Part shown: positions 9,203 through 51,816 of the stretch, one piece after another
Numbering within the stretch: the stretch's first letter is position 1
Layout: each line of letters begins with the position of its first letter
Notes under the pieces: generated by a model
What the model was told of the DNA's origin: nothing
The model's input: only the letters and a program-made list of their open reading frames with translations
Database searches by the model: none
DNA from: an uncultured Candidatus Saccharibacteria bacterium
Lineage (GTDB): Bacteria; Patescibacteriota; Minisyncoccia; Phycocordibacterales; UBA9973
Assembly (NCBI GenBank): GCA_964645245.1
Contig: CAZYBS010000005.1
Span: 1 to 51,873, forward strand
Reading direction: 5' to 3'
Length of the DNA: 51,873 bases
Position numbers and translations under genes: made by a program

Positions 9203-10118
9203 GGCAACGCTTTATACACAGCAATCAAAAAACGTGACAAAAACATGGCTGCTGATGACAGTGTTTTTTGTCGTGGTTATTGGACTTGGCTATTTTGTAA
9301 GTTTTTATTATAACAATCCGAATATTCTTTATTTCTTTGTTCTATTCAGTATCGTGATGAATATTTTTTCCTATTGGTTCTCGGATAAAATTGCCCTTAA
9401 GCTTGCGGGAGCTAAGCCGGCCAAAAGAGAAGAAAATTTTATTTTATATACGAGCGTTGAAAATCTTTCTATTACTGCCGGACTTCCAATGCCAAAGGTG
9501 TATATCATAAATGATCCAGCGCCGAATGCTTTTGCAACCGGGCGGGATAAAGAGCATGCCGTGGTCGCGGTGACCACCGGACTTCTTTCTATCCTGGAAA
9601 AGCCGGAGCTTGAAGGAGTGTTGGCACACGAGATGAGTCACATCGGTAATCGAGATATGCTTCTCTCCACCGTGGTCGTGGTTTTGGCCGGTTTTATTTC
9701 AATAATTTCAGATATTTTCCGCCGGAATTTATTTTTCAGCCGAAACAGAGATGACAATAAGGCTAATGCCGTATTTATGATTGTCGGCATTGTTTTATCT
9801 ATCCTGGCGCCGATTTTTGCTTTACTTATTCAATTGGCAATTTCTCGCAAACGTGAATTTCTGGCCGATGCATCCGGCGCGCTTCTGACTCGCTATCCGG
9901 AAGGGTTGGCCAGTGCACTGCGCAAAATTTCCAAATATCAAAAACCGATGGCTCGCCAATCCAGCGCCATTGCGCACCTTTACATTGCCGACCCCCGCCC
10001 GCATGACTCGCGTCAGCGTGTCGGGCAGGCCAAGGGCTCGGGTTTTGGCAAAAAAATTGGCGGTTTTTTTGCCACGCATCCGCCCGTGGAAGAGCGAATA
10101 AAGGCTTTGATTGGATAG
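9201..10118 (+). CDS. htpX: zinc metalloprotease HtpX
   Basis: PNAFATG, HEMSH, ISRKREFLAD and ATHPP..ERI motifs; 36-nt in-frame insertion at 9994-10029. Confidence 0.95.
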   Translation: MATLYTQQSKNVTKTWLLMTVFFVVVIGLGYFVSFYYNNPNILYFFVLFSIVMNIFSYWFSDKIALKLAGAKPAKREENFILYTSVENLSITAGLPMPKVYIINDPAPNAFATGRDKEHAVVAVTTGLLSILEKPELEGVLAHEMSHIGNRDMLLSTVVVVLAGFISIISDIFRRNLFFSRNRDDNKANAVFMIVGIVLSILAPIFALLIQLAISRKREFLADASGALLTRYPEGLASALRKISKYQKPMARQSSAIAHLYIADPRPHDSRQRVGQAKGSGFGKKIGGFFATHPPVEERIKALIG

Positions 10119-10123
10119 CTTCG

Positions 10124-10196
10124 TTGGTGTAAATTTTTTCCTCCTGCGCCCTTCGCCTTTGGCGTGGGACCCTCGGAGATAAAAAATTTACACCAA
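10124..10196. repeat. long inverted repeat (terminator or MITE-like)
   Basis: Perfect 16-bp arms TTGGTGTAAATTTTTT / AAAAAATTTACACCAA around a GC-rich core. Confidence 0.7.
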
Positions 10197-10221
10197 GCTA
10201 CGCTTTTGTTATACTCTTGAT

Positions 10222-10494
10222 ATGGACATTAAAGATGTAGAAAACCTGGCAAAACTTGCCAGAATTGAGCTTTCAGAAGATGAAAAAAGAGAGATATTTT
10301 CGGATATGAAAGGTATTTTGGAGTATGTAAAAGTTATTGAGGGAGTTAAAACAGGGGATGTAAAGCCAGAATACAAACTCTATAATATTTGGCGAGAAGA
10401 CAGGGAAGAACCTCGGGAATTTTCTCCTGAACTTATTATAAAACAATTCCCAGATGCCAAAGATGATTTTCTAAAAGTGAAAAAGATCTTATGA
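10222..10494 (+). CDS. gatC: Asp/Glu-tRNA amidotransferase subunit C
   Basis: DVENLAKLARIEL, WRED and FLKVKKIL motifs; overlaps gatA. Confidence 0.93.
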   Translation: MDIKDVENLAKLARIELSEDEKREIFSDMKGILEYVKVIEGVKTGDVKPEYKLYNIWREDREEPREFSPELIIKQFPDAKDDFLKVKKIL

Positions 10495-11897
10495 TTGATT
10501 TAACTACTCTTACTATTGCTAAAGCCCGAGCTAAACTTGATGCCAAAGAATTTTCCGCGGTTCAGCTGGCACAGGCATATCTTAATGAAATTGAAAAGAA
10601 AAATAGGGAATTAAATGTGTATTTGGAAGTGTACGATGATGTGCTGGAGCAAGCAAAAGTGGCCGACGAAATAATCGCCAGGGGAGAGTCTTACCCGCTT
10701 CTTGGCATTCCGCTTGCAGTTAAAGACGTCATTTTAATCAAGGGCCGGCGTGTCTCGGCCGGGTCTAAAATTTTAGAAAATTACACGGCTTCTTATGACG
10801 CTACGGTGATAGCTAAGTTAAAAAAACAAGGCGCAGTATTTTTAGGCAGAACGAATATGGATGAGTTTGCCATGGGAGGGTCAACAGAGAATTCTGCTTA
10901 CGGAGTAACAAAAAATCCGCATGATACCAGTAGAGTGCCGGGAGGTACTTCCGGCGGTTCAGCGGCTGCTGTAACTAGTAATATGGCGCTGGCGGCATTA
11001 GGTTCGGACACCGGTGGGTCACTTCGTCTACCATCTTCCTTTTGCGGAGTTATCGGGATGAAACCCACTTATGGCAAGGTCTCTCGTTATGGTCTTATAG
11101 CGGCAGTTTCTTCTTTTGATGTTATTGGTTCGATTGCAAAAACAGTAGAAGATGCTCGGATTTTATTTGAAGCGATAAAAGGGCGGGATGTTTTAGACAG
11201 TACCTCCATTGATTTAAATTCTACTCCCGAAAAATTTTCTCAAGTTCAAACAATAGGTGTACCGTGGGACCTGGTGAATCAAGAGGGGATTGACCCATAT
11301 ATCAAAGAGAATTTTAAAGCGGCGGTTAAAAATCTTGAAAGTCTAGGATATCAAATTAAAGATATTAAATTACCTAATTACCTTGCTTTATATTACATTA
11401 TCAACTTTGCTGAAGTTTCAACCAATCTGGCTCGTTTTGACGGAGTCAGATATGGTTTGCATATTGACGGCCAGAATTTACTTGATGATTATTTATTAAC
11501 CCGGGGTACTGGTTTCGGCAAGGAAGCTAGAAGAAGAATTCTTCTCGGCACTTATGTACTTTCGGCCGGTTATTATGATGCTTATTATGGCAAGGCCCAA
11601 AAGGCCCGCTTAGCTTTGAAAAAAGAATTCAAAGAATTATTTTCTAAGATTGATTTGATACTAACTCCCACCTCTCCCATAGTTCCTTGGAAAATAGGAG
11701 AGAAAAGCGATCCGCTTTCCATGTACCTTGTAGATATTTTCACGGTTACCGCCAATCTGGTCGGCGTGCCGGCTATTTCTTTACCATCCGGTCTTATTGA
11801 AATAGAGGCTAAAAAATTACCGTTAGGAATTCAGTTTATGGCACCGCATGGGGCAGAGGATATGCTTTTTGAAATCGGGAAGAAATTTATGATATAA
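10491..11897 (+). CDS. gatA: Asp/Glu-tRNA amidotransferase subunit A
   Basis: Amidase signature GGTSGGSAAA, GSDTGGS, RFDGVRYG and RRILLGTYVLSAGYYDAYY. Confidence 0.97.
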   Translation: MIDLTTLTIAKARAKLDAKEFSAVQLAQAYLNEIEKKNRELNVYLEVYDDVLEQAKVADEIIARGESYPLLGIPLAVKDVILIKGRRVSAGSKILENYTASYDATVIAKLKKQGAVFLGRTNMDEFAMGGSTENSAYGVTKNPHDTSRVPGGTSGGSAAAVTSNMALAALGSDTGGSLRLPSSFCGVIGMKPTYGKVSRYGLIAAVSSFDVIGSIAKTVEDARILFEAIKGRDVLDSTSIDLNSTPEKFSQVQTIGVPWDLVNQEGIDPYIKENFKAAVKNLESLGYQIKDIKLPNYLALYYIINFAEVSTNLARFDGVRYGLHIDGQNLLDDYLLTRGTGFGKEARRRILLGTYVLSAGYYDAYYGKAQKARLALKKEFKELFSKIDLILTPTSPIVPWKIGEKSDPLSMYLVDIFTVTANLVGVPAISLPSGLIEIEAKKLPLGIQFMAPHGAEDMLFEIGKKFMI

Positions 11898-11906
11898 TTT
11901 ATACAT

Positions 11907-12527
11907 ATGAATCCAAATCCCATTTTAGAAAATTCAGCTCTTGGCTCAAAATTTTTTAATCCGGATTACTTATTTAATCAAGGTCTTACATTTTTTCGTA
12001 ATCTTTTTGGCTATAGTACTGAAATAATATCTGTTTACCATACCATCCTTTTTTTTCTGGCAATGTTTTTTCTTACCATTATCTCTTATACTGCAATCCG
12101 AATGTTTGAAATTAGAAAGAAGGAACGCAAACATTTAGAACGTGAAATTGCCGAATACGCACACCGTCAGGCAGAAAGAGAAAAAAAATCTAAAGAAACA
12201 GAAGAAGTGTCCAGGAATCCTCAATGGGTAAAAACTCTAAGTTATCTTTTCTCACAGCATGCCAGCGATTGGAAACTGGCGGTTATTGAAGCTGATTCTA
12301 TGCTGGAGGACTTGATGAGTCAAATGGGATTTAAGGGCGAAACTTTGGGAGATAAGCTAAAATCAGCCGATCAAATTAAATTTCGCAATCTTCCTTCAGC
12401 TTGGGAAGTGCACACCGTCCGAAACAGGATAGCTCACGAGGGCGTGGCTTTTGAACTGACCCAGCGTGAAGCCAAAAGGATTATTGCCATTTATGAGCAA
12501 ATTTTTCGCGAGTATGGGTATATCTAA
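11907..12527 (+). CDS. membrane-anchored hypothetical protein with a HEPN-like C-terminus
   Basis: One TM segment, coiled region, WKLAVIEAD and RNRIAH (RxxxxH). Confidence 0.85.
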   Translation: MNPNPILENSALGSKFFNPDYLFNQGLTFFRNLFGYSTEIISVYHTILFFLAMFFLTIISYTAIRMFEIRKKERKHLEREIAEYAHRQAEREKKSKETEEVSRNPQWVKTLSYLFSQHASDWKLAVIEADSMLEDLMSQMGFKGETLGDKLKSADQIKFRNLPSAWEVHTVRNRIAHEGVAFELTQREAKRIIAIYEQIFREYGYI

Positions 12528-12530
12528 TTG

Positions 12531-12852
12531 TTGCGGGAGGCCGAATCGAACGGCCGTCTCAAGGTTATGCTTTACCACTTCAGTTTTCACTGCTTCATCC
12601 ACCGGCTGGCGGATTATTTGTGGTCTGGACTATACTATCTCCTTTCTAAAATAAATTAAAGATTAAGGAGTTCGCCATCTAGTCTCTACACATTTATCTC
12701 CGACCTGGGCCGGAAAATTTAGCTCGGAATTGTCTTTCTGTTAGCCGACAGAGAGGATTTCTCCGAATTTGACGAATGCACACCTCTGAGTTTCCCCGGA
12801 GGGGGCCCATATTTTAGTTGAGCCTTGCGAGATGCCTCTTCTCTATCCCGCT
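12531..12852 (-). tRNA. initiator tRNA-fMet(CAT), split by an intron (exons 12852-12821 and 12569-12531)
   Basis: Spliced sequence AGCGGGA TA GAGA AGAGGCA TCTC G CAAGG CT^CAT AA CCTTG AGAC GGCCG TTCGATT CGGCC TCCCGCA A; 1:72 mismatch and A11:U24 are initiator features. Confidence 0.93.
12570..12820 (-). ncRNA. group I self-splicing intron, 251 nt, no ORF
   Basis: P1 GGCU^CA/UGGGCC with U.G at the splice site; core elements AAATTCGGAGAA, AATTCCGAGC, GTAGAGACTAGATGG and GTATAGTCC; terminal G. Confidence 0.92.
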
Positions 12853-12933
12853 GTTTAATCATACTATAAAATTTTTGCTTTAAGCGCAAGCCTTCTATTT
12901 TTATAAATTTTCTGTTATTATATTTCTTATATT

Positions 12934-13149: not shown

Positions 13150-16100
13150 TTATGGAGTTGGCGTCGGTTCCGGCGCTGGTTCTGCCTCGCCCGCCGTAGT
13201 TTCATCCGACGTGTCCGTTGTAGCTTCAGCGGAGTCGGAAGGCTGGGGTTCTGCTGGAGTTTCCTCCCCTCCTTGTGGAGGAGGGGTTAGGGTGGTGATT
13301 TCTCCCGCGGGCTCAGAATTACCACCTCCCTCGCTTGGAGCGAGGACTCCTCCTTCCAAAGGAGGAGAGGGCTCTTCCCCTCCTTGCCCCGCTGTGGCGG
13401 TGGCTTGATCAAGGAGGGGTGCCGGCTCGTCTGCCGGGGTGGTGTCAGTTGCGCATTCTCCAGGTGCTTTGTCAAACTCTCCATTCTTGATGGTCACGCA
13501 ATAGATGTCTCCAGTTTGAGCGTCTTTTATCTCTAATTCTTCGGTAATAACTTTTTTACTCTCAATTACATTAGCCAAAATACTCGCCACCTTCATCACC
13601 CCCTTCTCAAAGACAATCTCAAAAGCGTTCTTGAAGAAAGCGAGAATGGAGTCAAAGAAAGAGTTGCCGGTCTGGGTGCCATCTTCATTTACCTCAAAAG
13701 AGCCAAAACCGGGAGCCCAGTAAGAAAGATTCACAAAGGTTAAGATTTTATCTATGTTCTCGGTGGAGGCCTCCATGGCGATACCCAAACTTGGACCAGG
13801 ATAACTTTGCTTCATCGCATAGCCAGGTATTGTTTTAGACAAAGTCAGTCTGTCTCCCACCTTAATCTCTCCGTTCTCATTACTTATCTTTACCGGCACT
13901 CTACCGCTTAGAGCTATGGCTCTGGTATTCTCCGGAGACACGTCTCCCGGCCAGTCTTTGAGGGTTATTCCCGGCTTGGTTGACACGATGCCGAGTACTG
14001 TCTTGCCTGTGATGCTTGCTTTCTCCACGTATAGCTTTTCATCTGTTAGAGATACCACGTCTCCGGCATTGATGGTCTCATCATGCACCAGATGCTCTTC
14101 GGCCACGTCCGCGCCGCCGCTGGAGCCCCAGATGTAGCCCAGCAATTCAAATGAACCAATACCTGCTGAGACTCTCAAATACAACCCCTGATACTCCGTG
14201 CCAACTACGCCCATTTGTGCGCGAACTGTTCCGTCACTTCTAAACGCAGCTGCGCCTGCGTTCCCTGCGTCTGATGTGGTTTCGTAACCATCAGGTACTC
14301 CGGCCGCTGTATTGATAGCGCCTAAGGTATCACTGGCAGTCCACATGTCCCCCACCACTGGTCCTGGCGGCAGCCCAATACTTACGTCTGTAAGTGTAGG
14401 GATGGTTGCGGTCAGATTAGAAATTATTTCGTATCTATCGAGATAGCGAACCTCATGGTCAAAAGCTGAGAAGGCGTCAAAATTACTTCCGCTATCGTTG
14501 TATACCCACCCCACCTTCGCTTTCTGGTCGTAGCCGGTGGGCATGGTGACGGAAGTATCGTTGCGGGTGACGTAGATTTTGAAGCGATGGTCGCCGGACG
14601 TTTCGTTTGCCCAACTCGTGCCGTTATATAATTCTTGCGTACCGCGCGTGTATCCAGCATCGGTCGTGCCGCGCCATGAAATAAAGTTGGTGTCACTGAT
14701 TGCGTAGTCACCTTGCATGACCAAGTGGTAAGCGGTCAATGCAGACAGCGAAACTGGACTACGGAACACGAACCGGACCTGCTGGGCCGTTGTGCTCACC
14801 AGTGACACATCGAGCTTGTCTGATGTCGCAAGGACAGTTCCGCTTGGAAGTCCAGACGTATCACTTTGAACTTCCAGCCAGAATCGGCCAGTCGGTGAAG
14901 CATTTTTGACTACTTCGACATCGACGAACTCCACCAGACCGGCTGTATCATTCTGAAATTCCTGAGCGATGGCCGTGCGTGCCCCGGCGTCACGAAGCCC
15001 TTGACTTGACAGAAGAGTCCCGATGGCTTCCTCATCCTTGAAATAATCCTTGGCCCGATGCAGGAGCAGATTCTTCGTCCCATCGGATGATTTCCTGATG
15101 GCGTAGATTTCATACCAGGTGGAAGCGGCTTCTGCTCCGGTATCCAGTCCTCCGGCACCGGCAGTGGTAATGACAGCAGACAGGTCATCCCAGGTCGTGA
15201 CTCTGTTCCCCGTATCCATCACGATCTCATCCGCATGGTCCAGGGTAACGGTAGTCGCCGCTACATCAGCGTTGGGAGAGGTTCTTAGGGAAAGACCTTT
15301 GAAGTCTTGCGAGATGCCTTCTGTCTTGGTAGTCCAAGATAGTGCTCCGGAACCATTGGTGGTCAAGACTTGGCCACTGGTGCCGTCAGCAATAGGAAGA
15401 GTGTAAGTGACATTCCCGGCCTGGGCCGCTGCCTTGAAACCGGTGTAGTTTGTTCCTGAACCGGAAGGTTCCAGGAAACGGAATTCAGCTGCCGAGGTAG
15501 AACCTCCGAAGTTAAGGACAGTAGTGGCGGAAGCACCAATGTTAAGGGTCGTGGCCGCTCCGAAAGCATTGACTGTGGTAGCCGTAGTGTTAAGAAGAGC
15601 AAAGGTGGTTGAGTCGGTGGTTAGAGAGGTGGTTAACTGAGGAGAAGTGGCGAGGACTAGAGAGCCTGTTCCCGTCTGATTGGTGGTGGTTAAAGCCGTC
15701 CCTCCACCTAAAGCCAGGGAGGTTCCGGTGGCTACTCCCAAGGTTGGAGTAATAAGGGTCGGAGAAGTGGAGAAGACTAAAGAACCGGAGCCGGTTTCAT
15801 CACTAATCACTCCCAAGAGTTGCAGAGAAGTCGTAGCCGAGAAGATTGAGAGGTCATTGGTAGTTAAAGTCACTGTGCCTGTGGCATTGGGAAAAGTAAT
15901 CGTCCGGTCAGCCGTCGGATCAGTCAGAGCAAAAGTTGTTTCAAAGTCATTGGCGGTGCCTCCTTCCAGCACTAAGGGATTAGCTCCTAAGATGGTTCCG
16001 GTAAAAGTAAGGGTGTCGGTACTTGCATCCCCAAAGGTAGTATTGTCCTGGACAGTTAAGTTGCCGGCGATAGTAGTAGCCCCGGTGGAGGTGGAGCCGG

Positions 16101-17181
16101 ATAATATTAAATTGCCGGCATAGATATCCCCCTCGGCATCCACCAGGAACTTGATAGTGCCTCCGACCGCAGCCGAGATGAGATTGCCGTCAGCGATGGA
16201 AGAAGCCGGATTGATGTAAATAGTTCCATCGGAAGCATTGGAAGTGCCGGTGGGCCAGGAGGAAAAGACATGAGCCAAGGTGGGAACTTTAGTGAAAGTA
16301 GATTGAGCGGTGGAAGTCAGCAAACTATTGGTGATGACTAGGCCGTTTAGAGTAGTAGTGCCGGTAACCGTCAGAGCTCCTCCCAGGGTAGTCAAGCCTG
16401 TGCCAACGGTAAAAGTGTTGGTACCAGTCACACTTGTTGCCCCACTCAAAGAGATGGCTCCAGTACCAGTGCTGAAAGTGTTGGCGCCGGTCTGGGAAAA
16501 AGTATTGGTCAGAGTCGTCGCCCCGGAGAGAGTCGTCGCCCCGGAGAGAGTGGTTGCTCCGGCAACCGTCAGAGCTCCAGTCACCGTCTGACTGCCGGCA
16601 ATGGTGGAATTGCCGGAGACCGCCAGAGTGGTAATGTTAGCTAGGTTGTTGGTCAATTGGTCCGAAGTGATATTGGTAGCGGAGAAGTAAGAGGCGCCGG
16701 AGAAGTTAACTTTCGGGTCGGGCGGAGCGATGTAGACTTGAGCATTTGAAGAGCTTGCTTGCGCGGACAAGCCGGGTTCTCCCCTCGGTCCTTCTGGACC
16801 TCGGGACCCTGCTGGGCCGGCTGGGCCGCGCAATTTGTCCACAAATTCTTTTTTACTCAATAAATTCTGGAGAGCGGAAGCCAGGGCGGAATCAGCAGTC
16901 ACAGACCCCTCCTCAATCCTCCCCTTAGCAGGGGAGGAGGAAACAGGCTGAATGTAAGCCTTGTAAGCATTGATTATGTCTGATTCGTTGGGCGAGTCAG
17001 GTTCTGAAACGTAAGCCTTGTAAGCATCCATTAAAGAAGTGCTGGTGAGGTTTTGTGCAAGAACATTTGATACCGGAGATGAAACCAAAACGACCAAGAC
17101 CAAAAGTCCGAGTAGAAATTCCACTCTTCTAGATATTTTCCCGCCAAATCGGCGGGCAAGCCTAAAATTTTTTGGTATCAT
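13150..17181 (-). CDS. 1343-aa exported fibre/adhesin-like protein
   Basis: Signal peptide, collagen-like G-X-Y stretch, T/G-rich beta repeats (ATTLSG x3), tail-fibre-like motifs (DETGSGSLVFSTSPTL, GGLDTGAEAASTWY), GADVAE...GRVPVK chaperone-like domain and an acidic P/E tail. Confidence 0.9.
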   Translation of the reverse strand: MIPKNFRLARRFGGKISRRVEFLLGLLVLVVLVSSPVSNVLAQNLTSTSLMDAYKAYVSEPDSPNESDIINAYKAYIQPVSSSPAKGRIEEGSVTADSALASALQNLLSKKEFVDKLRGPAGPAGSRGPEGPRGEPGLSAQASSSNAQVYIAPPDPKVNFSGASYFSATNITSDQLTNNLANITTLAVSGNSTIAGSQTVTGALTVAGATTLSGATTLSGATTLTNTFSQTGANTFSTGTGAISLSGATSVTGTNTFTVGTGLTTLGGALTVTGTTTLNGLVITNSLLTSTAQSTFTKVPTLAHVFSSWPTGTSNASDGTIYINPASSIADGNLISAAVGGTIKFLVDAEGDIYAGNLILSGSTSTGATTIAGNLTVQDNTTFGDASTDTLTFTGTILGANPLVLEGGTANDFETTFALTDPTADRTITFPNATGTVTLTTNDLSIFSATTSLQLLGVISDETGSGSLVFSTSPTLITPTLGVATGTSLALGGGTALTTTNQTGTGSLVLATSPQLTTSLTTDSTTFALLNTTATTVNAFGAATTLNIGASATTVLNFGGSTSAAEFRFLEPSGSGTNYTGFKAAAQAGNVTYTLPIADGTSGQVLTTNGSGALSWTTKTEGISQDFKGLSLRTSPNADVAATTVTLDHADEIVMDTGNRVTTWDDLSAVITTAGAGGLDTGAEAASTWYEIYAIRKSSDGTKNLLLHRAKDYFKDEEAIGTLLSSQGLRDAGARTAIAQEFQNDTAGLVEFVDVEVVKNASPTGRFWLEVQSDTSGLPSGTVLATSDKLDVSLVSTTAQQVRFVFRSPVSLSALTAYHLVMQGDYAISDTNFISWRGTTDAGYTRGTQELYNGTSWANETSGDHRFKIYVTRNDTSVTMPTGYDQKAKVGWVYNDSGSNFDAFSAFDHEVRYLDRYEIISNLTATIPTLTDVSIGLPPGPVVGDMWTASDTLGAINTAAGVPDGYETTSDAGNAGAAAFRSDGTVRAQMGVVGTEYQGLYLRVSAGIGSFELLGYIWGSSGGADVAEEHLVHDETINAGDVVSLTDEKLYVEKASITGKTVLGIVSTKPGITLKDWPGDVSPENTRAIALSGRVPVKISNENGEIKVGDRLTLSKTIPGYAMKQSYPGPSLGIAMEASTENIDKILTFVNLSYWAPGFGSFEVNEDGTQTGNSFFDSILAFFKNAFEIVFEKGVMKVASILANVIESKKVITEELEIKDAQTGDIYCVTIKNGEFDKAPGECATDTTPADEPAPLLDQATATAGQGGEEPSPPLEGGVLAPSEGGGNSEPAGEITTLTPPPQGGEETPAEPQPSDSAEATTDTSDETTAGEAEPAPEPTPTP
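13265..13423. repeat. three DUF559-type palindromic units inside the CDS
   Basis: 13265-13287 is 23/23 identical to 37352-37374; 13321-13368 parallels 37404-37454; the third unit 13375-13423 has a nested insert. Confidence 0.85.
16905..16938. repeat. DUF559-type palindromic unit inside the CDS
   Basis: TCCTCCCCT-tagc-AGGGGAGGA with an ACCCCTCC flank; encodes SSPAKGRIEEGS. Confidence 0.7.
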
Positions 17182-18509: not shown

Positions 18510-18749
18510 ATGACAACAAAAATTCGAAAATGGGGGAATAGTTTGGCGGTGCGAATTCCGGATGAATTTGCAGAAAATCTTGACCTGAAAGACGGTTCTG
18601 TTGTTGGCTTTCACCAACTGGGAGACAAAATGGTTATTTCAAAAGCCAAGCCCAAATATACTTTGGAAGATATGGTGAAAGGCATCACCAAAAAAAATAG
18701 ACATAAAGAATTTGATTGGGGAAAGCCCATGGGTAAAGAAATATGGTAA
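18510..18749 (+). CDS. mazE: AbrB/MazE family antitoxin
   Basis: KWGNSLAVRIP, YTLEDMV and DWGKPMGKEIW motifs. Confidence 0.93.
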   Translation: MTTKIRKWGNSLAVRIPDEFAENLDLKDGSVVGFHQLGDKMVISKAKPKYTLEDMVKGITKKNRHKEFDWGKPMGKEIW

Positions 18750-24472: not shown

Positions 24473-25563
24473 TGAAAAGAAAATTAATTTGGCTTTTTAT
24501 CATTTTTTTATTTTTACTACTTGCTTTATTTTTTATATTTCCAGAATTTTTAGGTAGTGGCATATCTTATAAAAAGAGTGATGAACTAGTAAAGCGAGAA
24601 AAGTCTTTAGCATCCGTTATCCCTCCGCTAGATATTGTGGCCTATGATAAAAAATTAAATGAATTAGCCAATAACCCCCCGGCACCTCAACCCGCTTTGC
24701 CTCTTCCCTGGCCGGTGAAGACTGTCTATCCTAATGCTGGCGCCATCTTGCCATTCAAGCGCATTGTTGCTTATTACGGAAATTTATATTCCCCAAAAAT
24801 GGGAGTTCTAGGGCAGTACCCCGAAGAAGAAATGCTCGCCAAGCTAGACACTGAAGTGAAAAAATGGGAGACAGCGGACCCAAATACTCCTGTATTGCCG
24901 GCACTTCATTATATCGCAGTTGTAGCGCAACAGAAACCGGGGGGAGACGGTAAATATAGACTTCGTATGCCGGATTCTGAAATAGATAAAGTGCTCGCAA
25001 TCGCGGCGAAAATACCTGCCCGCAATGTTTCAGGCATAGCTGATGCAGGCGGGAATGCTCTTGTTTTTTTGGATATTCAAGTCGGATTTTCCAGCTTGCA
25101 AGCCGAGATGCCTTTGCTCGAAAAATATTTTAAATTGCCCAATGTGCATTTAGGTATTGACCCTGAATTTTCAATGAAAAATGGTATCAGACCGGGAAAG
25201 ATAGTCGGAACATTTGACGCCGACGATATAAATTTTACGGCCGATTATTTAGCAAGGATTGTGAGAGAAAATAATTTAAATCCGAAAATATTGGTTGTGC
25301 ATCGTTATACGCAAAAAATGGTGACTAATTACAAAATGATTAAATCTTTGCCGGAAGTGCAAATCGTTATGCACATGGATGGCTGGGGCGGCATGGCCAA
25401 GAAAATTAATACCTATCAGCAGTTTATTTATAAAGAACCTGTTCAATTTACCGGTTTTAAATTATTTTACAAGAATGATGTTTTTGAGCCCAATACTGTC
25501 TTAATGACACCGGCTGAATTACTCAAACTAAGTCCGCAACCTGTATATATACAATATCAGTAG
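24472..25563 (+). CDS. membrane-anchored conserved hypothetical protein
   Basis: N-terminal TM segment; RIVAYYG, VFLDIQVG, HLGIDPEF and MDGWG motifs; 39-nt in-frame insertion at 25015-25053. Confidence 0.88.
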   Translation: MKRKLIWLFIIFLFLLLALFFIFPEFLGSGISYKKSDELVKREKSLASVIPPLDIVAYDKKLNELANNPPAPQPALPLPWPVKTVYPNAGAILPFKRIVAYYGNLYSPKMGVLGQYPEEEMLAKLDTEVKKWETADPNTPVLPALHYIAVVAQQKPGGDGKYRLRMPDSEIDKVLAIAAKIPARNVSGIADAGGNALVFLDIQVGFSSLQAEMPLLEKYFKLPNVHLGIDPEFSMKNGIRPGKIVGTFDADDINFTADYLARIVRENNLNPKILVVHRYTQKMVTNYKMIKSLPEVQIVMHMDGWGGMAKKINTYQQFIYKEPVQFTGFKLFYKNDVFEPNTVLMTPAELLKLSPQPVYIQYQ

Positions 25564-29080: not shown

Positions 29081-29823
29081 GCTACGGAGGGCTACGGAGG
29101 CGTTGCCTCCGTACCTTCTAATTATCAAAACTAAGCCACTCTAAGAGTTCTTTTTTGTGATCATTTGGTTTTTTGAAATAAGCAGGGAATGGTGTTGGGT
29201 TTATGATTTTAAATTTTAGTTTAGTGTATTCTTTTAAACTTGAATACCGGTAGGAAAAGACATATTTTAACAAATCCGCACTGTTTCTGTGTTTATTTTC
29301 TTTCCAATTCTTGTCTATTAGTTTTACAGGGTTTAGGTGTATGTATGAGTACAAATATTTCAAATACCTATCACTACTTGCGTGGATTGATTTAAATACT
29401 CCTTCATATAATTTGCCTGTCCGCTTGTATTTTTTATTAAAATACATCGAATAGCTAGTCATTAGCTTAAGCATATACTTAGAAATTCCACCTTCAATTT
29501 TTTCATGAGCGAGTATGTGAAAATGATTAGGCATTAAACAATATAGTCCTATATCAACTATAATTTCTCCACGGTCAAAATTTTCACCAATATTTCTCAA
29601 TTCTATACTTTTTGTGGTATTACAAATATACATTAGAAATAAAAAATGCTCATAGTCTTGCTCGTCCAAAAATATTACTCTTTTTTCTGTACCACGATTA
29701 TATAGGTGATAAAATTCACCAGGTGCAAAAACTTGTTTTCTTAAAGCCATCTGTTTAGTATAACATGGAAAAATACGGAGGCAACGCCTCCGTGACCCCT
29801 CCGTGACCCCTCCGTGACCTCCA
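29081..29823 (-). mobile_element. RAYT/REP-type element: Y1 transposase with flanking palindromes
   Basis: TACGGAGG-cgttg-CCTCCGTA at 29093-29113 and its inverse TACGGAGG-caacg-CCTCCGTG at 29774-29794, with extra half-sites on the outer sides. Confidence 0.85.
29118..29750 (-). CDS. REP-associated tyrosine (HUH/Y1) transposase
   Basis: YHLYNRG, YCLMPNHFH, YIHLNP and YSS motifs. Confidence 0.92.
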   Translation of the reverse strand: MALRKQVFAPGEFYHLYNRGTEKRVIFLDEQDYEHFLFLMYICNTTKSIELRNIGENFDRGEIIVDIGLYCLMPNHFHILAHEKIEGGISKYMLKLMTSYSMYFNKKYKRTGKLYEGVFKSIHASSDRYLKYLYSYIHLNPVKLIDKNWKENKHRNSADLLKYVFSYRYSSLKEYTKLKFKIINPTPFPAYFKKPNDHKKELLEWLSFDN

Positions 29824-38625: not shown

Positions 38626-40596
38626 TTAGACGCTCAATATCACCGGTATGACTAAAGGCCTTTTTTCAGTTTTCTGGTATAAGAATTTTGAAATGCTTTC
38701 CCCTAATTCTTTTTTAATGTAGTCAAAATCTATTGGACCATTTTTTGTTACTCTATCTTCCACTGATTTTTTAATAATCATTCTAACTTGCCGCAAAAGT
38801 TCCTGGTTTTCCTTCAGATAGACAAATCCGCGAGAGATTAAATCCGGAGATTTTTTTAATTTCCCGGTTTTTTGGTCTACCAGCGCGATAATGACGAACA
38901 TTCCATCCTGCGCGAGCATGACCCGGTCACGGATAACGACATCCTGCGCATCTCCGACGGAGGCGCCATCTACCATCATTAGTCCGGACGGCGCTTTCTC
39001 TTTACGCATGGCTATTTTTTGTCCGTCGGCGGATATTTCAATGATTGAACCATTGTCCGGGACCACGATGTTTTCTTCACTCATGCCGAGTTCCAGCGCC
39101 AATTCTTTATGTCTTACGAGCATTGAATGCCAGCCATGAATTGGTATGAAGAACTTTGGATGAACTTTCCTATGGAGCCACTTGATATCTTCTTGGTTAC
39201 CGTGGCCGGTCGCGTGGACGAAATCTTCACCAGCCGTGCGGTAGCTTATGATGCGCACGCCTTGCCGAGTCAAGCCGTCTTTCATTTTTTGCACCTGCAG
39301 TTCATTGCCTGGAATGATGGAGGCCGAGAGTATTATTGTGTCTCCTTTGTGTAAGGAAAATTTCGTATGTGATTTATTAGCAACCCGATTGAGTGCGGCA
39401 AATTCCTCACCTTGTGCTCCGGTCATCAGAATGACAACTTTATTGGACGGATAATTATTTATTTCCTCGATTGATATGATGGTGCCTTTTTTAGGTTGGA
39501 ATAATCCCGCTTCGATGGCCACTTCAATATTTGTTTTCATCGAACGTCCGTCAATTGCTATTTTCTTGCCCAAGGATTCGGCAAATTTTACGACATGAGC
39601 CAGTCGGGTAATATGCGAAGCAAAAGCGGCAATGATTATTCGGCCGCTTACTTTTCTGACTAAATTATCAAGTCCCTGATGCACTTTCACTTCCGGCAGG
39701 GAGAAACCCTCGTTTTCAATATTAGTGGAGTCAGTCATTAAAAGAAGCACCCTCGCTTTATCAAAAATAGAATATTCCTTTTCTTCCTCTTGGGAAACGA
39801 TTCCGTCCACTTGATCAAGTTTATAATCTCCCGGAGTTACAATCCATCCATGTTCTGTCTCTATAATTATGCCCATGGAGTCAGGAATCGTATGAGTCAC
39901 TCCGAAGAATCTCACTTTTATTTTTCCGCAGGTTATCGTTTCATCTTTTTCAACTATATTTTCTTTCATGGCTGGCAAGTGCGGAAACTCGGCTTGGCGC
40001 TTTTTCATTAACAGGATAGAAAGGTTTCTGGAATAGACCGGGGGATTGCCGATGCGTGAAAGGACCAGGGGTACACCCCCAATATGGTCCAAGTGTCCAT
40101 GCGTTATGATGAGCGCGCGTATTTTTTCCTTGCGTTCTTCAAGGTAGGTCGTGTTGGGGATAACATAATCAACTCCGGGTGTAGCTTCATTGGAAAAATG
40201 CATGCCGGCGTCAATGATAATAATGTCTCCCCCGATTTCTATCGCCGTCATATTTTTGCCGATTTCTTCCACTCCTCCCAGTGGAATAATACGAATTACT
40301 CCTCTCTCTGGCGGAAGAATACTTACGTTTTTTGCGCTATTCTGGTTTTTATATTGATTTTTCCCGCCAAACGAACGAGACCGGCCTGTTTGCCCATATC
40401 TTTTTTTGGAGTATTGATAAGTAGAACTCTTCATTGGCCTTTTTCTATCTCCCATCCGGTGTTCACTTTTGTGCTCCCCGCCCGAACGACTGTCCAGTCG
40501 GGCAGGCCCACCTGCCCATTGACGGGCAGGTGAATTCTCTCCTGTACTAGAATCCTTGCTTACTGAGCTGAAAGATAATCTGGTTTTTTTAATCAT
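38626..40596 (-). CDS. rnj: ribonuclease J (ATG 40596 preferred)
   Basis: LGGVEEIGKNM, THGHLDHIGG, DSTN, HATGHG and PIHG motifs; low-complexity N-terminal extension with inserted palindromes. Confidence 0.95.
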   Translation of the reverse strand: MIKKTRLSFSSVSKDSSTGENSPARQWAGGPARLDSRSGGEHKSEHRMGDRKRPMKSSTYQYSKKRYGQTGRSRSFGGKNQYKNQNSAKNVSILPPERGVIRIIPLGGVEEIGKNMTAIEIGGDIIIIDAGMHFSNEATPGVDYVIPNTTYLEERKEKIRALIITHGHLDHIGGVPLVLSRIGNPPVYSRNLSILLMKKRQAEFPHLPAMKENIVEKDETITCGKIKVRFFGVTHTIPDSMGIIIETEHGWIVTPGDYKLDQVDGIVSQEEEKEYSIFDKARVLLLMTDSTNIENEGFSLPEVKVHQGLDNLVRKVSGRIIIAAFASHITRLAHVVKFAESLGKKIAIDGRSMKTNIEVAIEAGLFQPKKGTIISIEEINNYPSNKVVILMTGAQGEEFAALNRVANKSHTKFSLHKGDTIILSASIIPGNELQVQKMKDGLTRQGVRIISYRTAGEDFVHATGHGNQEDIKWLHRKVHPKFFIPIHGWHSMLVRHKELALELGMSEENIVVPDNGSIIEISADGQKIAMRKEKAPSGLMMVDGASVGDAQDVVIRDRVMLAQDGMFVIIALVDQKTGKLKKSPDLISRGFVYLKENQELLRQVRMIIKKSVEDRVTKNGPIDFDYIKKELGESISKFLYQKTEKRPLVIPVILSV

Positions 40597-45333: not shown

Positions 45334-47283
45334 ATGCCAACAAAAAAACCAAATAAAATTGAAGAAATTATAGGGAAAATTTTCAAAGACGGGGAACTTG
45401 CTTTTGGCTTGCGGGAATTTGACAATATTGATATTTTAAAGGTTCTTGAAATTACAGAGGAAGAAAAAGGCCGCTACTATTTGAAAGATTTAAAATCTGG
45501 TAAAACTCGTTTTGTCTATGATGAGAAAAAAGAAACTGGAAAGCCGGAAGAGATTGTTCGCCAGCTTTGGCTTTACAAACTAAACAAACATTATAAATAT
45601 CCTATGGACCGCCTAGAGACGGAAAAAAGTATTCACTTTGGACGCGAAGTTCACGGTAAGGCAGTCGATATCGTTGTTTACAAAACAGATAAAGTTACCC
45701 CTTATATTTTAGTTGAGGTAAAAGCCCCGACAGAAAGTAAAGGCATAGAACAAATGAAAGGATATTTAAATGCGGAGGGTGCAGAAATAGGCGTGTGGGG
45801 CAATGGCATAAAACGCGTCATTTTATATAGATTTTACCCAAAAGAATTTAACGACACACTTCCGGATCTTCCGAAAGCAGATCAGACCATTGATGACCTT
45901 TTAGAAGCAAAGAAAACATACTTTGACCACACAACTACAAAGGTAAATCTCAAAGAGACCATTGATTCCATGCAAGAACTTGTTCTTGCTAATGCGGGCG
46001 TCGATGTTTTTACTGAAGTTTTTAAATTAATTTACGCCAAACTTTACGATGAAGAAGAAGCAAAGCTCGCTCGTGCCGACAAAGAGGTTTTATTTAGAAA
46101 ATACAAAGACCCGACAAAAACTTACAGCGTTATCAACGATCTTTTTAAAAAAGCGATCAGACGCTGGCCGGGCACGTTCTTAGAGCAGGAGAACATCAGT
46201 CTTTCTCCGAACCACCTTTCGATTGTTGTCGGCGAACTTGAAACCACACGTCTTTTTGGTTCTGATCTTTCCATTATTGATGAAGCATTTGAATATCTTA
46301 TTCCGGAAGTTGCCAAAGGTAAAAAAGGGCAGTATTTTACCCCGCGCCATGTCATAAGTATGGCGGTCAAAATGCTTGACCCAAAGCGTGATGAATACAT
46401 TCTTGATCCCGCCGCCGGCTCTGGGGGTTTTTTGATTAGCGCGATGTATCATATGAAAAGTCATTACCTGAACGACTCTGAAGACGCGATGCGCGAGTAT
46501 GCCAAAGAGCACATCTGGGGTATTGATTTTGCGGATGAAATTTCAAAAGTGTCGCGAGCACTTATGCTAATAGCTGGTGATGGAAGGTCGCACATGTTTA
46601 AATTAAATTCCCTTGATCCACGTGAGTGGAAAGGCGAAGAACAAAATCTTCTTCATGCACGTTCTGAACTTCAAAAACATCTTTTAAAATTTGATAACTC
46701 TTCCGATAACGAAGAAAATAAAAATACATTTCACTATATGGATTTTGATATTCTCTTAACTAATCCGCCATTTGCGGGGGAAATAAAAGACCAAGGACTT
46801 CTGCGTCAGTATTTTTTTGGAAAGAAAAAAGGAAAACTTGTAAACAAAGCTGAACGGCATATCCTTTTTATTGAGCGTACTTTGGACATGATTCGTCCGG
46901 GAGGCAGAATGGCAATAGTACTTCCACAAGGGGTTTTAAATAATACCAACATGCAGTATGTCCGAGAATATCTTTTTGATAAAGCGCGAATTCTTGCTGT
47001 TGTGGGACTTCACGGAAATACTTTCAAACCACATACTGGTACAAAGACAAGTGTACTGTTTTTGCAGAAATGGGAGGGTAAGCCCTTAAAAGATTATCCA
47101 ATTTTTATGGCTGTTTCAAAAAAGGGAGGGAAAGATAATTCCGGAGATTATATTTACAAAAAAGATGTAAATGGAAACTATGTTCACGACGCCAGGGGTC
47201 GAAAAGTGCTTGACCATGATTTAGACGAAATCGCGGAGGGGTTCATAAAGTTCGCGAAAGAACAGAAATTAAAATTTATATGA
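45334..47283 (+). CDS. N6-adenine DNA methyltransferase with an N-terminal HsdR_N-like PD-(D/E)xK domain
   Basis: PEEIVRQ, VDIVV..VEVK, GQYFTPR, LDPAAGSGGF and TNPPF motifs. Confidence 0.93.
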   Translation: MPTKKPNKIEEIIGKIFKDGELAFGLREFDNIDILKVLEITEEEKGRYYLKDLKSGKTRFVYDEKKETGKPEEIVRQLWLYKLNKHYKYPMDRLETEKSIHFGREVHGKAVDIVVYKTDKVTPYILVEVKAPTESKGIEQMKGYLNAEGAEIGVWGNGIKRVILYRFYPKEFNDTLPDLPKADQTIDDLLEAKKTYFDHTTTKVNLKETIDSMQELVLANAGVDVFTEVFKLIYAKLYDEEEAKLARADKEVLFRKYKDPTKTYSVINDLFKKAIRRWPGTFLEQENISLSPNHLSIVVGELETTRLFGSDLSIIDEAFEYLIPEVAKGKKGQYFTPRHVISMAVKMLDPKRDEYILDPAAGSGGFLISAMYHMKSHYLNDSEDAMREYAKEHIWGIDFADEISKVSRALMLIAGDGRSHMFKLNSLDPREWKGEEQNLLHARSELQKHLLKFDNSSDNEENKNTFHYMDFDILLTNPPFAGEIKDQGLLRQYFFGKKKGKLVNKAERHILFIERTLDMIRPGGRMAIVLPQGVLNNTNMQYVREYLFDKARILAVVGLHGNTFKPHTGTKTSVLFLQKWEGKPLKDYPIFMAVSKKGGKDNSGDYIYKKDVNGNYVHDARGRKVLDHDLDEIAEGFIKFAKEQKLKFI

Positions 47284-48137
47284 GTAAAAAAGTTGTCGAA
47301 AAAGAATTCAAAGACACAGTTTTTAAGCAAGGATTTTCTCTTGAGCAAAATGTTTTTCGGATTCTTGAAAAAGACGGCTGGAGAATTCACCCAAATAGAA
47401 ATTTCTTTGATTCTACTAATAATGTAACTCGCGAATTTGATTTACTAGCGTATAGATCAAAAACGCAGGCACACACAACAGTATTTACTGTTTTGATTAT
47501 TGAATGCAAATTTAACCCGCATAGAATTGTTTTTTATACTCGACAGGCAAATAAGTCAGATGAGGCACTTTGCTTACCACAATTTTATACCGGCGACTTT
47601 ATTCAAAATATCTTTTCTTCTGAAAAAGCGCGGGAATTTTGGCTGAACATAAAAAGATATAAAAATCTTTTCTTAAACACAGAGCAAGTTTTTGGTTATC
47701 AGATGTTTGAGGAAACCCCTCAAAAGCAAGCCAAAAATGGCGGGAACGATAAGAAAGTCACATTCAAAGCACGGCAAGAGTTAACAGAAAAGATGGTTTT
47801 TGGAGCTCTTAATACTACTATGCAAGCAACTTTATATGAACAAAAAATTAGAGATAAGGTTAAAAATGCCGGAAATATAATAATATTCTTTCCTGTGGTT
47901 ATATTTTCAGACAATTTATATAAAGCGAGTTTAGAGGATAGAAAAATATTAAAGAGACAAGAAACTTTTCTCTACCGTAGTGGTATGACTTTTAGTGATA
48001 GCGCATCCCCTGATGAGTTTAATATATACATAAGCAGTGTCGCCTATCTCTCAACCCTATTAAAAGCCTTTAATTATAGCCACAAAAACTTTTCAACCTT
48101 CTTTTTTAAAAATATTAAAGAACTAAAAAGAAAATGA
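47280..48137 (+). CDS. putative PD-(D/E)xK nuclease
   Basis: GFSLE..V..L, REFDLLA and IIECK motifs; ATGA overlaps at both ends. Confidence 0.75.
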   Translation: MSKKVVEKEFKDTVFKQGFSLEQNVFRILEKDGWRIHPNRNFFDSTNNVTREFDLLAYRSKTQAHTTVFTVLIIECKFNPHRIVFYTRQANKSDEALCLPQFYTGDFIQNIFSSEKAREFWLNIKRYKNLFLNTEQVFGYQMFEETPQKQAKNGGNDKKVTFKARQELTEKMVFGALNTTMQATLYEQKIRDKVKNAGNIIIFFPVVIFSDNLYKASLEDRKILKRQETFLYRSGMTFSDSASPDEFNIYISSVAYLSTLLKAFNYSHKNFSTFFFKNIKELKRK

Positions 48138-49474
48138 TTACTTATTCCATAATCAAAAAATCACAACTTGAAGAAGCTTTGCGACTTGATGCTGAATACT
48201 ATCAGCCAGAGTATTTAGGTTATAACAAAAAACTTCTATCTATTGCTCATGTGAAGCTTGGAGAAATTGCTTTTGTTACAGATGGTGAACACGGCTCACC
48301 AATTTTTGATGAAAACAGTGGTATTAAATATTTTTCCGCGCAACATCCACAAGATGGTTTTATAGATTCAGAAGCAAAAATGATTTCCAAAATCATTGAT
48401 ATAAAAAATAGACGTTCTAGTTTAAAAGTCGGGGATGTTCTTCTTTCTACGGTGGGGACCATTGGAAACGCTGGCATAGTTACAAAAGATTTATTACCAG
48501 CAAATATTGATAGACACGTAGCACGAATCGCTTTAAATAAGAGAACTATTAACCCTGAATTTTTAATTGCTTTTTTAATATCAAAATTTGGTAAGTTTCA
48601 ATCAATAAGAGAATCAACAGGGAATGTCCAATTGAATTTATTTATTGATAAGATAAAAGATCTTATTATCCCAAGTATTGAAGATATAAATGTAACCAAG
48701 TTAATGCAACAATCTCTATCGGAAAGAGAAAAATCGAAATCTTTATATCTTCAAGTAGAAAATTTACTTTTAGATGAATTGGGGTTGAAAGATTTTGATG
48801 AAAAAGCTGGATTATGGAGTATTGTAAATTTATCTGAAACAGAGAAAGTGTACCGTATTGATGCCGAATATTTTCAACCGAAATATGAGAAACTGATTTT
48901 AAAAATAAAAAGCAAAAAACCGGAAAAGTTGGAAAATTTTATAAAAAATCATTCAACAGGGTTTCCGTTTCAGAGCGAAAATTATCAAGAGACAGGTATA
49001 CCTTTGATCAGGATCAATAATATTCGAAAGGGATATTTAGATTTAAGCAATTCTGCTTATCTGACGGAAAAAGACTATTTATTATCTCCAAAAGATGTGG
49101 CGAAGCCTAGAGATATAATTTTATCCATGTCTGGCTCAATAGGCATGACAGCTTTAGTTCCAAAAGACATACCTAAAAGTGCTATAAACCAACGTATACT
49201 AAGGATGATCACACAAAACATTGAAAAAGATTATTTGGTGCTTTTATTGAATTCGATAGTAGGTTCGTACCAATTAGAAAGAATCGGAACCGGTGGTTTA
49301 CAGACAAATATTTCTTATAAAGATATTAAGAAGATTTTAATTCCAGTTTTACCTAAACCAATTCAAGAAAAAATTTCAAAGTTGGTACAAAAATCGTATA
49401 TAGCCAGAAAAAGATCCAAAGAACTTTTGGAAGAAGCAAAACATAAAATTGAGGAATTGATAGAAAATAGTTAA
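48134..49474 (+). CDS. HsdS-like specificity subunit with two TRDs
   Basis: Duplicated RLDAEYYQP/RIDAEYFQP, GDVLLS..GTIG and DIILS..GSIG motifs. Confidence 0.9.
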   Translation: MITYSIIKKSQLEEALRLDAEYYQPEYLGYNKKLLSIAHVKLGEIAFVTDGEHGSPIFDENSGIKYFSAQHPQDGFIDSEAKMISKIIDIKNRRSSLKVGDVLLSTVGTIGNAGIVTKDLLPANIDRHVARIALNKRTINPEFLIAFLISKFGKFQSIRESTGNVQLNLFIDKIKDLIIPSIEDINVTKLMQQSLSEREKSKSLYLQVENLLLDELGLKDFDEKAGLWSIVNLSETEKVYRIDAEYFQPKYEKLILKIKSKKPEKLENFIKNHSTGFPFQSENYQETGIPLIRINNIRKGYLDLSNSAYLTEKDYLLSPKDVAKPRDIILSMSGSIGMTALVPKDIPKSAINQRILRMITQNIEKDYLVLLLNSIVGSYQLERIGTGGLQTNISYKDIKKILIPVLPKPIQEKISKLVQKSYIARKRSKELLEEAKHKIEELIENS

Positions 49475-51417: not shown

Positions 51418-51454
51418 TATAATTAAATTATTATAAACTAAAAGAAGCAAATTT

Positions 51455-51514
51455 ATGGCAAAAGGCGACGGACACAGAAAAGAGAAAAAGAAACCAAAGA
51501 AAGCTAAAAAATAG
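51455..51514 (+). CDS. 19-aa Lys-rich peptide MAKGDGHRKEKKKPKKAKK
   Basis: Own extended -10 (TGaTATAAT, 51415-51423), A-rich leader and own terminator. Confidence 0.55.
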   Translation: MAKGDGHRKEKKKPKKAKK

Positions 51515-51518
51515 CAAC

Positions 51519-51554
51519 ACACAAAAAGCCCCCATTTAGGGGCTTTTTGTGTGC
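51519..51554. terminator. intrinsic terminator
   Basis: ACACAAAAAGCCCC-cattta-GGGGCTTTTTGTGT. Confidence 0.85.
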
Positions 51555-51583
51555 TTGACACTAACTTTTCATTGGTATATACT
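51555..51583 (+). promoter_or_regulatory. 16S rRNA promoter
   Basis: TTGACA-17 nt-TATACT; boxA-like CTCTTTGACAA near 51628. Confidence 0.82.
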
Positions 51584-51722
51584 TTTCTAGCGTCTTTCCT
51601 TTAGTGGAATGACGTTTTAATTTAACCCTCTTTGACAAATGAATAGTTTTTGAGAACAAGTGCAAGCTTGTTCTATTTTTTTTGAATTCCAAGAGCTTGG
51701 ATCAAACGTGCAAACACAAAAA

Positions 51723-51816
51723 CCCGCCAGAATGACATTCATGTCGGGCTGGCATTGTTGTTTTTTGTTTTGTTTCGTTCCCCGCCTGCAACGCTATGCG
51801 TAGCATTGCGGGCAGG
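51723..51816. repeat. two CCCGCC...GGGC(A/T)GG elements in the 16S leader (51723-51752, 51781-51816)
   Basis: Same termini as the in-frame insertions in htpX, rnj and 24472..25563. Confidence 0.75.

Follow-up and report, generated by a model that had tools for sequence, protein, structure and literature searches.

Short G+C-rich hairpin repeats, most of them in frame within genes, in a contig related to Candidatus Nomurabacteria

Genomes of the candidate phyla radiation (CPR) are tiny and streamlined, and selfish repeats are thought to be rare in them. Against this background one may ask what the short hairpins are that recur within and between the genes at the start of contig CAZYBS010000005.1, in a stretch of 51,873 nucleotides (nt; contig positions 1 to 51,873) that was analysed here as a whole and is called the window below, and how they came to lie there. 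A first reading of this DNA (the original prediction) had described six copies of a CCCGCC...GGGCAGG element inserted into genes without disturbing the reading frame, and had proposed a mobile micro-element that adds peptide loops to proteins. The window has a G+C content of 40.6%, and the nearest named relatives of its proteins are found in Candidatus Nomurabacteria / Paceibacteria (Patescibacteria, CPR); it was compared with 80 related loci comprising 1,263,720 bases in total. The copies form a repeat family whose members in genes lie in frame, whose sites are occupied in some orthologues and empty in others, with multiple alleles per site, and which can be identical at the nucleotide level between diverged hosts. 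We consider it probable that they are repeats of the kind to which repetitive extragenic palindromic (REP) elements and Rickettsia palindromic elements (RPEs) belong, here as tiny, G+C-rich imperfect palindromes of about 20-39 nt residing in Candidatus Nomurabacteria genomes.

A dispersed family of short hairpins

All six copies were found again at the positions first given, and a scan with one mismatch allowed in the ends added a seventh, which had been overlooked, at 17140-17160 (Table 1). The strict pattern CCGCC-N10-40-GGGCAGG has four matches in the window compared with 0.05 expected, and four or more matches occurred in 0 of 100 dinucleotide shuffles. With one end mismatch allowed there are 11 overlapping matches at seven places, including both degenerate copies (40507-40530 and 51723-51752); 50 shuffles gave 0.3 matches on average and never more than 2. 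A covariance model built on an alignment of 13 copies (alignment A3) recovered the same seven places, and these only, within the window at E values up to about 0.4. The original prediction had itself named a chance frequency of the motif as the outcome that would speak against it; with four strict matches against 0.05 expected, chance palindromes are excluded and the copies are a dispersed repeat family. One weak match of the covariance model, at 18084-18114, is the GGQ motif of a release factor and no copy. Across the 80 related loci the strict pattern matched only five times, and the covariance model adds few more; with 1 copy per 7 kb, the family has a much higher density in the window than in the relatives sampled. 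At gathering thresholds no Rfam family was found at any copy, and a blastn search of a 16S-leader copy against a phage collection gave no match.

The ends of the element are fixed in sequence, reading 5'-CCTGCCCG ... GGCGGG-3' on the better-folding strand, and the core is variable in both sequence and length. Alignment A3 shows no variation at C1, at G4-G8 and over most of the 3' end. The terminal stem is imperfect in a recurrent manner, with a U.G at pair 3 in 12 of the 13 copies and an unpaired position 7 in 10 of them, and it usually holds a C.A mismatch besides the conserved T.G pair. No stem pair is altered on both sides in any of the 13 copies; because the ends are fixed in sequence, the terminal stem lacks covariation, which neither supports nor refutes the hairpin. 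A hairpin fold is predicted for every copy (z-scores -1.5 to -5.4), the CCUGCCCG strand being the more stable one in each of the five regions folded on both strands, and the copies have a G+C content of 60-75%.

Copies in genes and copies outside of genes belong to one DNA family, because the reverse complement of the 16S-leader copy at 51781, when translated, gives exactly PARNATHSVAGG, a peptide that 2 of 120 RNase J homologues (P0393 and P0427) have in their linker. The copy at 25015, which had been described as close to the reverse complement of the 51781 copy, indeed matches it in 33 of 39 aligned columns.

Several further hairpins in the related loci were kept apart from the family. Those of 20 nt in loci L042, L043 and L045 (11680) have weak scores and were not counted as firm copies. 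In L045 (11662-11730) and L043 (about 13340-13400) a stretch that resembles the 5' half of tRNA-Met lies just upstream of tRNA-Met and is broken by a 20-nt CCCGCC...GGGCA[AG]G hairpin; ARAGORN calls no tRNA there, and the stretch may be a decayed tRNA duplicate with a mini-copy. A perfect palindrome, CCTGCCTGCCGGCAGGCAGG, or a near variant of it, is present in L036 (7049-7068), L042 (6125-6144) and L077 (6120-6143), in the first two just upstream of orthologous open reading frames of about 472 amino acids (aa); it shares only the CCTGCC/GGCAGG motif and is of a separate kind.

Table 1. Positions of the repeat copies, their host genes and other features in the window
Feature	Position	Strand	Remarks
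36-nt copy in htpX	9994..10029	-	encodes RPHDSRQRVGQA, HtpX residues 266-277
21-nt short copy	17140..17160	-	weakest of the seven; covariance model 16.2 bits, E 0.36; encodes LARRFGG at residues 8-14 of the probable surface protein (1343 aa)
39-nt copy in 363-aa TIM-barrel-like protein	25015..25053	+	encodes PARNVSGIADAGG, residues 182-194
30-nt copy, RNase J N-terminal linker	40477..40506	-	encodes PARLDSRSGG, residues 31-40 of the 656-aa protein
24-nt degenerate copy	40507..40530	-	abuts the 40477-40506 copy; 24.7 bits; encodes PARQWAGG, RNase J residues 23-30
30-nt degenerate copy, 16S rRNA leader	51723..51752	-	non-coding; 31.7 bits; followed by a T-rich run
36-nt copy, 16S rRNA leader	51781..51816	-	non-coding; ~10 nt upstream of the 16S rRNA 5' end; reverse complement reads PARNATHSVAGG
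htpX	9201-10118	+	host of one copy
1343-aa surface protein gene (probable)	13150-17181	-	host of the 21-nt copy
363-aa TIM-barrel-like protein gene	24472-25563	+	host of one copy
RNase J gene (rnj)	38626..40596	-	host of two copies; start is ATG at 40596 (MIKKTRLSFSS), not 40632
Hairpin CGGAGGCGTTGCCTCCG, 17 nt	29095..29111	.	left arm of the pair flanking the transposase-like gene
Y1 HUH transposase-like gene, RAYT-like, 210 aa	29118..29750	-	Pfam PF01797 and motifs
Hairpin CGGAGGCAACGCCTCCG, 17 nt	29776..29792	.	inverted partner; followed by three CCTCCGTGACC repeats
23S rRNA end and 5S rRNA	1-366		left edge of window; Rfam
16S rRNA start	51826-51873		right edge of window; Rfam

In-frame copies and empty sites in orthologues

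Two of the seven copies belong to the leader of the 16S rRNA, and the other five lie in frame within genes. Of these five, four are read in the same frame (xAR...GG); the htpX copy has the opposite orientation and gives an RP...GQA peptide. For the two copies at the N-terminus of RNase J the original prediction had left some doubt, which 75 aligned homologues settle: the start MxKKTRLSFS, upstream of both copies, is conserved in 75/75 of them, so that RNase J starts at 40596 and both copies are coding. The linker that hosts them is hypervariable.

The six lengths listed at first (36, 39, 30, 24, 30 and 36 nt) are all multiples of three, as had been pointed out, but this is no property of the element itself. 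A length divisible by three (p = 0.004) and the lack of stop codons are common to all five coding copies, whereas the two non-coding copies of the window measure 30 and 36 nt and those of related loci 38, 38, 34, 24 and 20 nt. Because non-coding copies are thus unconstrained, the length rule is a filter imposed by translation, and it is a coincidence that both non-coding copies in the window conform to it. The same filter argues against the notion that the hairpins are cut from the mRNA like introns and remain untranslated. Strong hairpins with fixed ends could serve as a recognition signal for such a removal, yet a frame restriction of coding copies next to unconstrained non-coding ones is expected from translation and not from splicing, and we know of no splicing machinery for such elements in bacteria; we regard removal at the RNA level as extremely improbable.

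Alignment of orthologues, a check named with the original prediction, showed that the inserts are absent from many of them at exact points and hence add peptide loops. Among 119 classified HtpX homologues, 81 lack the insert and read DPKG... directly, and 32 contain a RPHDSRQRVGQA-like peptide, which is identical in 23 of these. The insert is therefore not private to the window genome but shared, with little change, by these 32. Two homologues have other cores between the same ends, namely RPLSPERSDGGQA (P0022) and RPTERSFGQA (P0096). For the protein encoded at 24472, 9 of 120 homologues were unclassifiable; of the 111 classified ones 77 are without insert, and 34 have alleles of 6, 7, 9, 12, 13 or 25 aa, all of the form P[AV][RS]...GG. 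Removal of the copy restores DPKGSGFGKK in HtpX and an uninterrupted AAKI-NALVFLD in the 24472 protein, as predicted and as found in orthologues. The only related locus with an orthologue of the 24472 protein, L041, is free of the insert, and a close RNase J linker occurs in none of the loci.

Several different alleles occur at the same sites. At the 24472 site they include the series PARNASGIADAGG, PARPSGAGG, PARPAGG, PARAGG and no insert, and two of the 34 are compound: in P0184 (PARNTSDIADA-RPHDSLQRIGQA-GG) the htpX-type peptide RPHDSLQRIGQA is nested in another type of element, and P0162 contains a nested second unit of the PA.NAS... type. At one and the same point of RNase J we found PARQWAGG plus PARLDSRSGG (window), PARQLAGG (P0394), PARNATHSVAGG (P0393) and no insert (P0397), and such modules are concentrated in the linker of this protein (16 in 13,200 linker residues compared with 2 in 63,758 residues elsewhere). 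The window contains two pairs of copies whose starts lie within 70 nt of each other (p about 0.001). These adjacent pairs and the nested alleles suggest insertion beside or into existing copies, or local duplication.

In phylogenetic trees calculated without the insert columns, presence and absence of the inserts are scattered. The HtpX tree (110 rows of at least 292 aa, 26 with insert) requires 18 parsimony changes, at least six of which are forced by well-supported branches, and the 24472 tree (111 rows, 34 with insert) requires 23, with at least five forced.

The host proteins have little in common. The 24472 protein is conserved in Nomurabacteria, belongs to no Pfam or NCBIfam family and has an N-terminal membrane helix. 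Its AlphaFold model (mean predicted local distance difference test value, pLDDT, 77.3) has a predicted TIM-barrel-like fold, for which a fold search returned only generic TIM-barrel matches with template modelling (TM) scores of 0.3-0.4, weakly to glycoside hydrolases and dihydropteroate synthase. The mapping onto structures that had been suggested was successful for this protein, where the insert lies in a low-confidence loop between the helix 168-179 and the strand 197-203 (pLDDT below 50 at 186-189 and 191-193), but not for HtpX, whose model (mean pLDDT 58.5, residues 253-305 below 50) is too poor for placing the insert. The 1343-aa protein has no Pfam or NCBIfam match, and the G+C content of the region encoding it rises to 53%. 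Its sequence combines long T/S/G-rich repeats with a short collagen-like G-x-y run and a tail rich in P, E and T, features that point to a probable surface or fibre protein.

With four of five coding copies in one frame (xAR...GG) and a highly conserved peptide in HtpX, the inserts might be thought to be selected as protein modules, that is, as P-A-R...G-G loops with a function of their own, the palindromy of the DNA being incidental. Identical DNA is, however, also found at non-coding sites (the 16S leader and intergenic copies in L040, L051 and L072), which argues against a module acting purely at the protein level. Moreover, the htpX copy gives an unrelated peptide owing to its opposite orientation, the hosts and structural contexts are unrelated, and the insert is modelled at low confidence in a loop. 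We thus consider a protein module very improbable.

Selection, conversion or transposition

The htpX copy was compared at the nucleotide level. Between the window and locus L045 (9097-9132), whose HtpX shows 79% protein identity, the element is identical in 36/36 nt, including 12/12 third codon positions, whereas the remaining gene is 70.7% identical, and 42.8% identical at third positions. At the protein level, mean pairwise identity is 92.5% for the insert peptide, 75% for the first 170 residues of HtpX and 49.5% for the ten loop residues that follow the insert. The flank upstream of the insert likewise has a raised third-position identity between the window and L045 (13-15/15, codons about 246-265 and about 251-275). 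Compared with insert-free genes the respective values are 2-8/15 in five of six cases, L026 being the exception with 13/15 in one flank window. Downstream of the insert, divergence between the window and L045 begins at once.

One explanation for this pattern is that the copies are old, vertically inherited insertions that are selected as cis-acting hairpins (for RNA processing, stability or attenuation, or as protein-binding DNA sites), are not mobile now, and owe their patchiness to repeated precise deletion. Complete identity of the element, all third positions included, in a gene near synonymous saturation is consistent with such selection, as are an insert peptide that outdoes its host protein in conservation, the stable predicted folds of the copies and the location of two of them in the leader of the 16S rRNA, a region in which one expects processing stems; the allele series at the 24472 site, from PARNASGIADAGG to none, resembles stepwise trimming. 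Yet the orientation of the copies with respect to transcription is mixed, the better-folding strand being present in the RNA for 4/7 copies, the functions of the hosts are unrelated, and the insert is dispensable in most orthologues (81/119 and 77/111). Nested copies (P0184, P0162) and the presence of the same element at unrelated loci need duplication to new sites, and the raised third-position identity of the upstream flank fits recent shared ancestry of the tract better than selection on the hairpin alone. We therefore judge an origin by hairpin selection unlikely.

A second explanation is homing-like recombination, in which an occupied allele converts empty alleles after uptake of DNA between Nomurabacteria lineages. 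The finding that lineages from scattered parts of the tree have one and the same 12-aa insert at one HtpX codon (at least six forced changes), the 36/36 nt identity combined with raised synonymous identity upstream, and the several alleles at each of three sites are consistent with such a process. The flank signal, however, comes from one pair of genomes, the insert-free L026 also reaches 13/15 in part of the flank, divergence sets in directly downstream of the insert, resolution of the trees is poor, and no nuclease is linked to the copies. Homing-like conversion thus seems quite improbable.

A third possibility is transposition by an enzyme that acts on hairpins. According to the original prediction no mobilising enzyme was identifiable in the window; this has to be revised, because a gene for a Y1 transposase-like protein (IS200/RAYT-like, RAYT standing for REP-associated tyrosine transposase) is located at 29118-29750, albeit flanked by a different hairpin and hence only as a candidate. 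The encoded protein matches the Pfam family Y1_Tnp (PF01797) with 28.2 bits (cut-off 23, E 2.2e-6). It contains the motifs HFH (in LMPNHFHIL) and YSYIHLNP, which by analogy with the family are the putative catalytic residues, and the Y1 HUH fold, HUH motif and catalytic tyrosine that characterise RAYTs thus appear to be present. The gene, its hairpin pair, two GGCTACGGAG repeats on one side and three CCTCCGTGACC repeats on the other (29095-29792) make up a REPtron-like unit. The CGGAGGCGTTGCCTCCG-type hairpin has two matches in the window, both of them flanking this gene, and transposase homologues in L036, L019 and L034 are each flanked by a different hairpin of their own. A search of solved structures with the transposase-like protein returned nothing meaningful. 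HUH Y1 transposases read imperfect hairpins as single-stranded DNA, as at the ends of IS200/IS605 elements and in RAYT/REP systems; part of this mechanism is described in PMC3733652. The gene shows that hairpin-acting Y1 enzymes are present in the lineage, and it is a candidate for the mover of the copies.

In the scenario that we favour, copies would land both in non-coding DNA (the rRNA leader, or downstream of genes) and in genes, but within genes they would persist only if their length is a multiple of three, if they bring no stop codon and if the site is a loop or linker. The peptide added there would mostly be P-A-R...G-G, or R-P...G-Q-A where the copy is turned around. Occupied sites would turn over fast, with new copies arriving beside or inside old ones, cores being trimmed by deletion and whole copies being precisely lost. 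Spread would leave no target duplication and would be brought about by an enzyme that recognises single-strand hairpins, most plausibly a RAYT-type HUH Y1 transposase.

A number of observations weigh against this scenario. No transposition event has been seen directly, and mobility is read from the distribution of the copies; of the mobile micro-element originally proposed, the in-frame peptide loops are confirmed by orthologues and the mobility is deduced. Recombination between lineages could mimic gains and losses, and alleles at one site could arise through change in place and not by repeated insertion. Resolution of the trees is weak, with only 18/106 (HtpX) and 16/102 (24472) inner branches well supported, so that the forced minima of six and five changes are the safer numbers. 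Insert-bearing orthologue DNA comes from one genome only (L045), the other orthologue evidence being at the protein level. The hairpin flanking the transposase-like gene differs from the CCCGCC...GGGCAGG family and has no further match in the window and none in the 80 loci, and the only NCBIfam family matched by the protein, REP_Tyr_transpos, is matched with 30.4 bits, well below its curated cut-off of 80. Six of the seven copies share one orientation on the + strand, a bias that is not significant (p = 0.125). Finally, neither a target-site duplication nor a shared target sequence was found in the ten flanks compared. Three candidate mechanisms may account for the spread and the strong conservation of the element: transposition by a hairpin-recognising enzyme, an exchange between lineages that converts empty alleles, or selection for a hairpin acting in cis. 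A more far-reaching proposal would be a self-propagating micro-element of 20-40 nt that repeatedly targets the same codons of conserved genes and moves between diverged Nomurabacteria by hairpin-directed insertion or empty-allele conversion, staying identical in nucleotide sequence while its host gene saturates at synonymous sites, and that generates diversity in loop length and sequence in essential CPR proteins by nesting and trimming; we regard this as distinctly unlikely.

Relation to known repeats and significance

In the literature searched we found no earlier description of such a repeat family in CPR, Patescibacteria or Nomurabacteria. Known systems were compared as far as they are described in the accessible parts of two publications (PMC10969869 and PMC3733652). 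RPEs, which had been named as the known analogue, are a fair functional match in that they insert in frame and add peptides to unrelated genes. They are palindromic repeats of about 150 bp in unrelated housekeeping genes (Ogata et al. 2000/2002; PMC10969869), occur also in non-coding DNA, have no dedicated transposase known (PMC10969869, PMC3733652) and carry a CGTC tag at their ends (PMC3733652). Like RPEs, the window copies add a family-specific peptide at sites tolerated by the fold, and they do so in HtpX, the TIM-barrel-like protein, RNase J (twice) and the surface protein, with peptides of the form xAR...GG or RP...GQA. In contrast to RPEs, with a size range of 100-150 bp, they measure 21-39 nt, and they occur in Patescibacteria, not in Alphaproteobacteria; with CGCC at the place of the CGTC tag they are set apart from RPEs as these are described in the accessible text.

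REP elements of the GTAG/CGTC superfamilies (Di Nocera et al. 2013) are palindromes of 20-40 bp with tens to thousands of copies, patchily distributed among species and often located downstream of genes as single or clustered units; some are intragenic in loops or linkers, where they encode a few residues, and they are known in several phyla and linked to Y1 transposases (RAYTs) in some genomes (PMC3733652). The hairpins at seven places in 52 kb, 21-39 nt long, agree with this description as far as the window is concerned. However, the window ends, CCTGCCCG and GGCGGG, are paired and part of the stem, unlike the unpaired GTAG/CGTC tag of REP elements; CGTC is found only in the copies of L040 and L051, which end in CCCGTC, and there it lies inside the stem. 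In a REPtron a RAYT gene is flanked by the same repeat family, whereas the hairpins on either side of the RAYT-like gene found here are of the CGGAGGCGTTGCCTCCG type. The window copies are also mostly intragenic (5/7), and the host phyla given in the accessible text of PMC3733652 do not include Patescibacteria.

With IS200/IS605 elements and RAYT systems the copies share imperfect palindromes with conserved mismatches, the lack of a target-site duplication, the tendency of new copies to land beside old ones and a possible replication-related strand bias (which in the window is not significant); they differ in that no cleavage motif or guide sequence was identified in the copies and the link to an enzyme is that of a candidate. 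MITEs, miniature transposable elements with inverted repeats, leave target-site duplications. Those found inside genes (ERIC, Correia/NEMIS, Nezha and others) are small non-autonomous repeats for which in-frame fusions with host genes are possible (PMC10969869). MITEs have a size of 70-300 bp and terminal inverted repeats of 15-30 bp (PMC3733652). The window copies, on the contrary, are single short hairpins of at most 39 nt with ends of 6-8 nt, and the ten flanks compared are free of duplications.

As for the genomic setting, the end of the 23S rRNA gene with the 5S rRNA gene and the start of the 16S rRNA gene are located on the same strand at opposite edges of the window, 51 kb apart; since the 16S gene is not directly upstream of the 23S-5S pair, the rRNA genes are either unlinked or from two operons. 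The GC skew of the + strand is positive across the whole window. Genes for a MazF/PemK-like toxin (18743-19078), a DUF559 protein (Vsr-like endonuclease domain; 36947-37336) and the methylase and specificity pair of a type I restriction-modification system (45334-49474) adjoin no copy. Rfam identifies a group I intron at 12610-12830 (region about 12530-12870, - strand), whose flanks, in a by-eye comparison with the intact tRNA-Met of L045 (11732-11803), resemble two halves of tRNA-Met(CAU); ARAGORN makes no call for a tRNA-Met gene split around the intron.

The repeat family described here survives largely in frame in loops of housekeeping proteins, as do RPEs in Rickettsia, another reduced genome, and it would be a second, independent case of the RPE-like strategy, at the smallest size yet. 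The identity of 36/36 nt across hosts with saturated synonymous sites poses a testable choice between hairpin selection and recent spread. With many alleles at each of them among close relatives, the occupied sites are natural markers of strain divergence, and they supply proteins like RNase J and HtpX with variable loops. At the same time, inserts of this kind can mislead gene callers, as the start of rnj illustrates, and likewise the alignment and structure prediction of CPR proteins.

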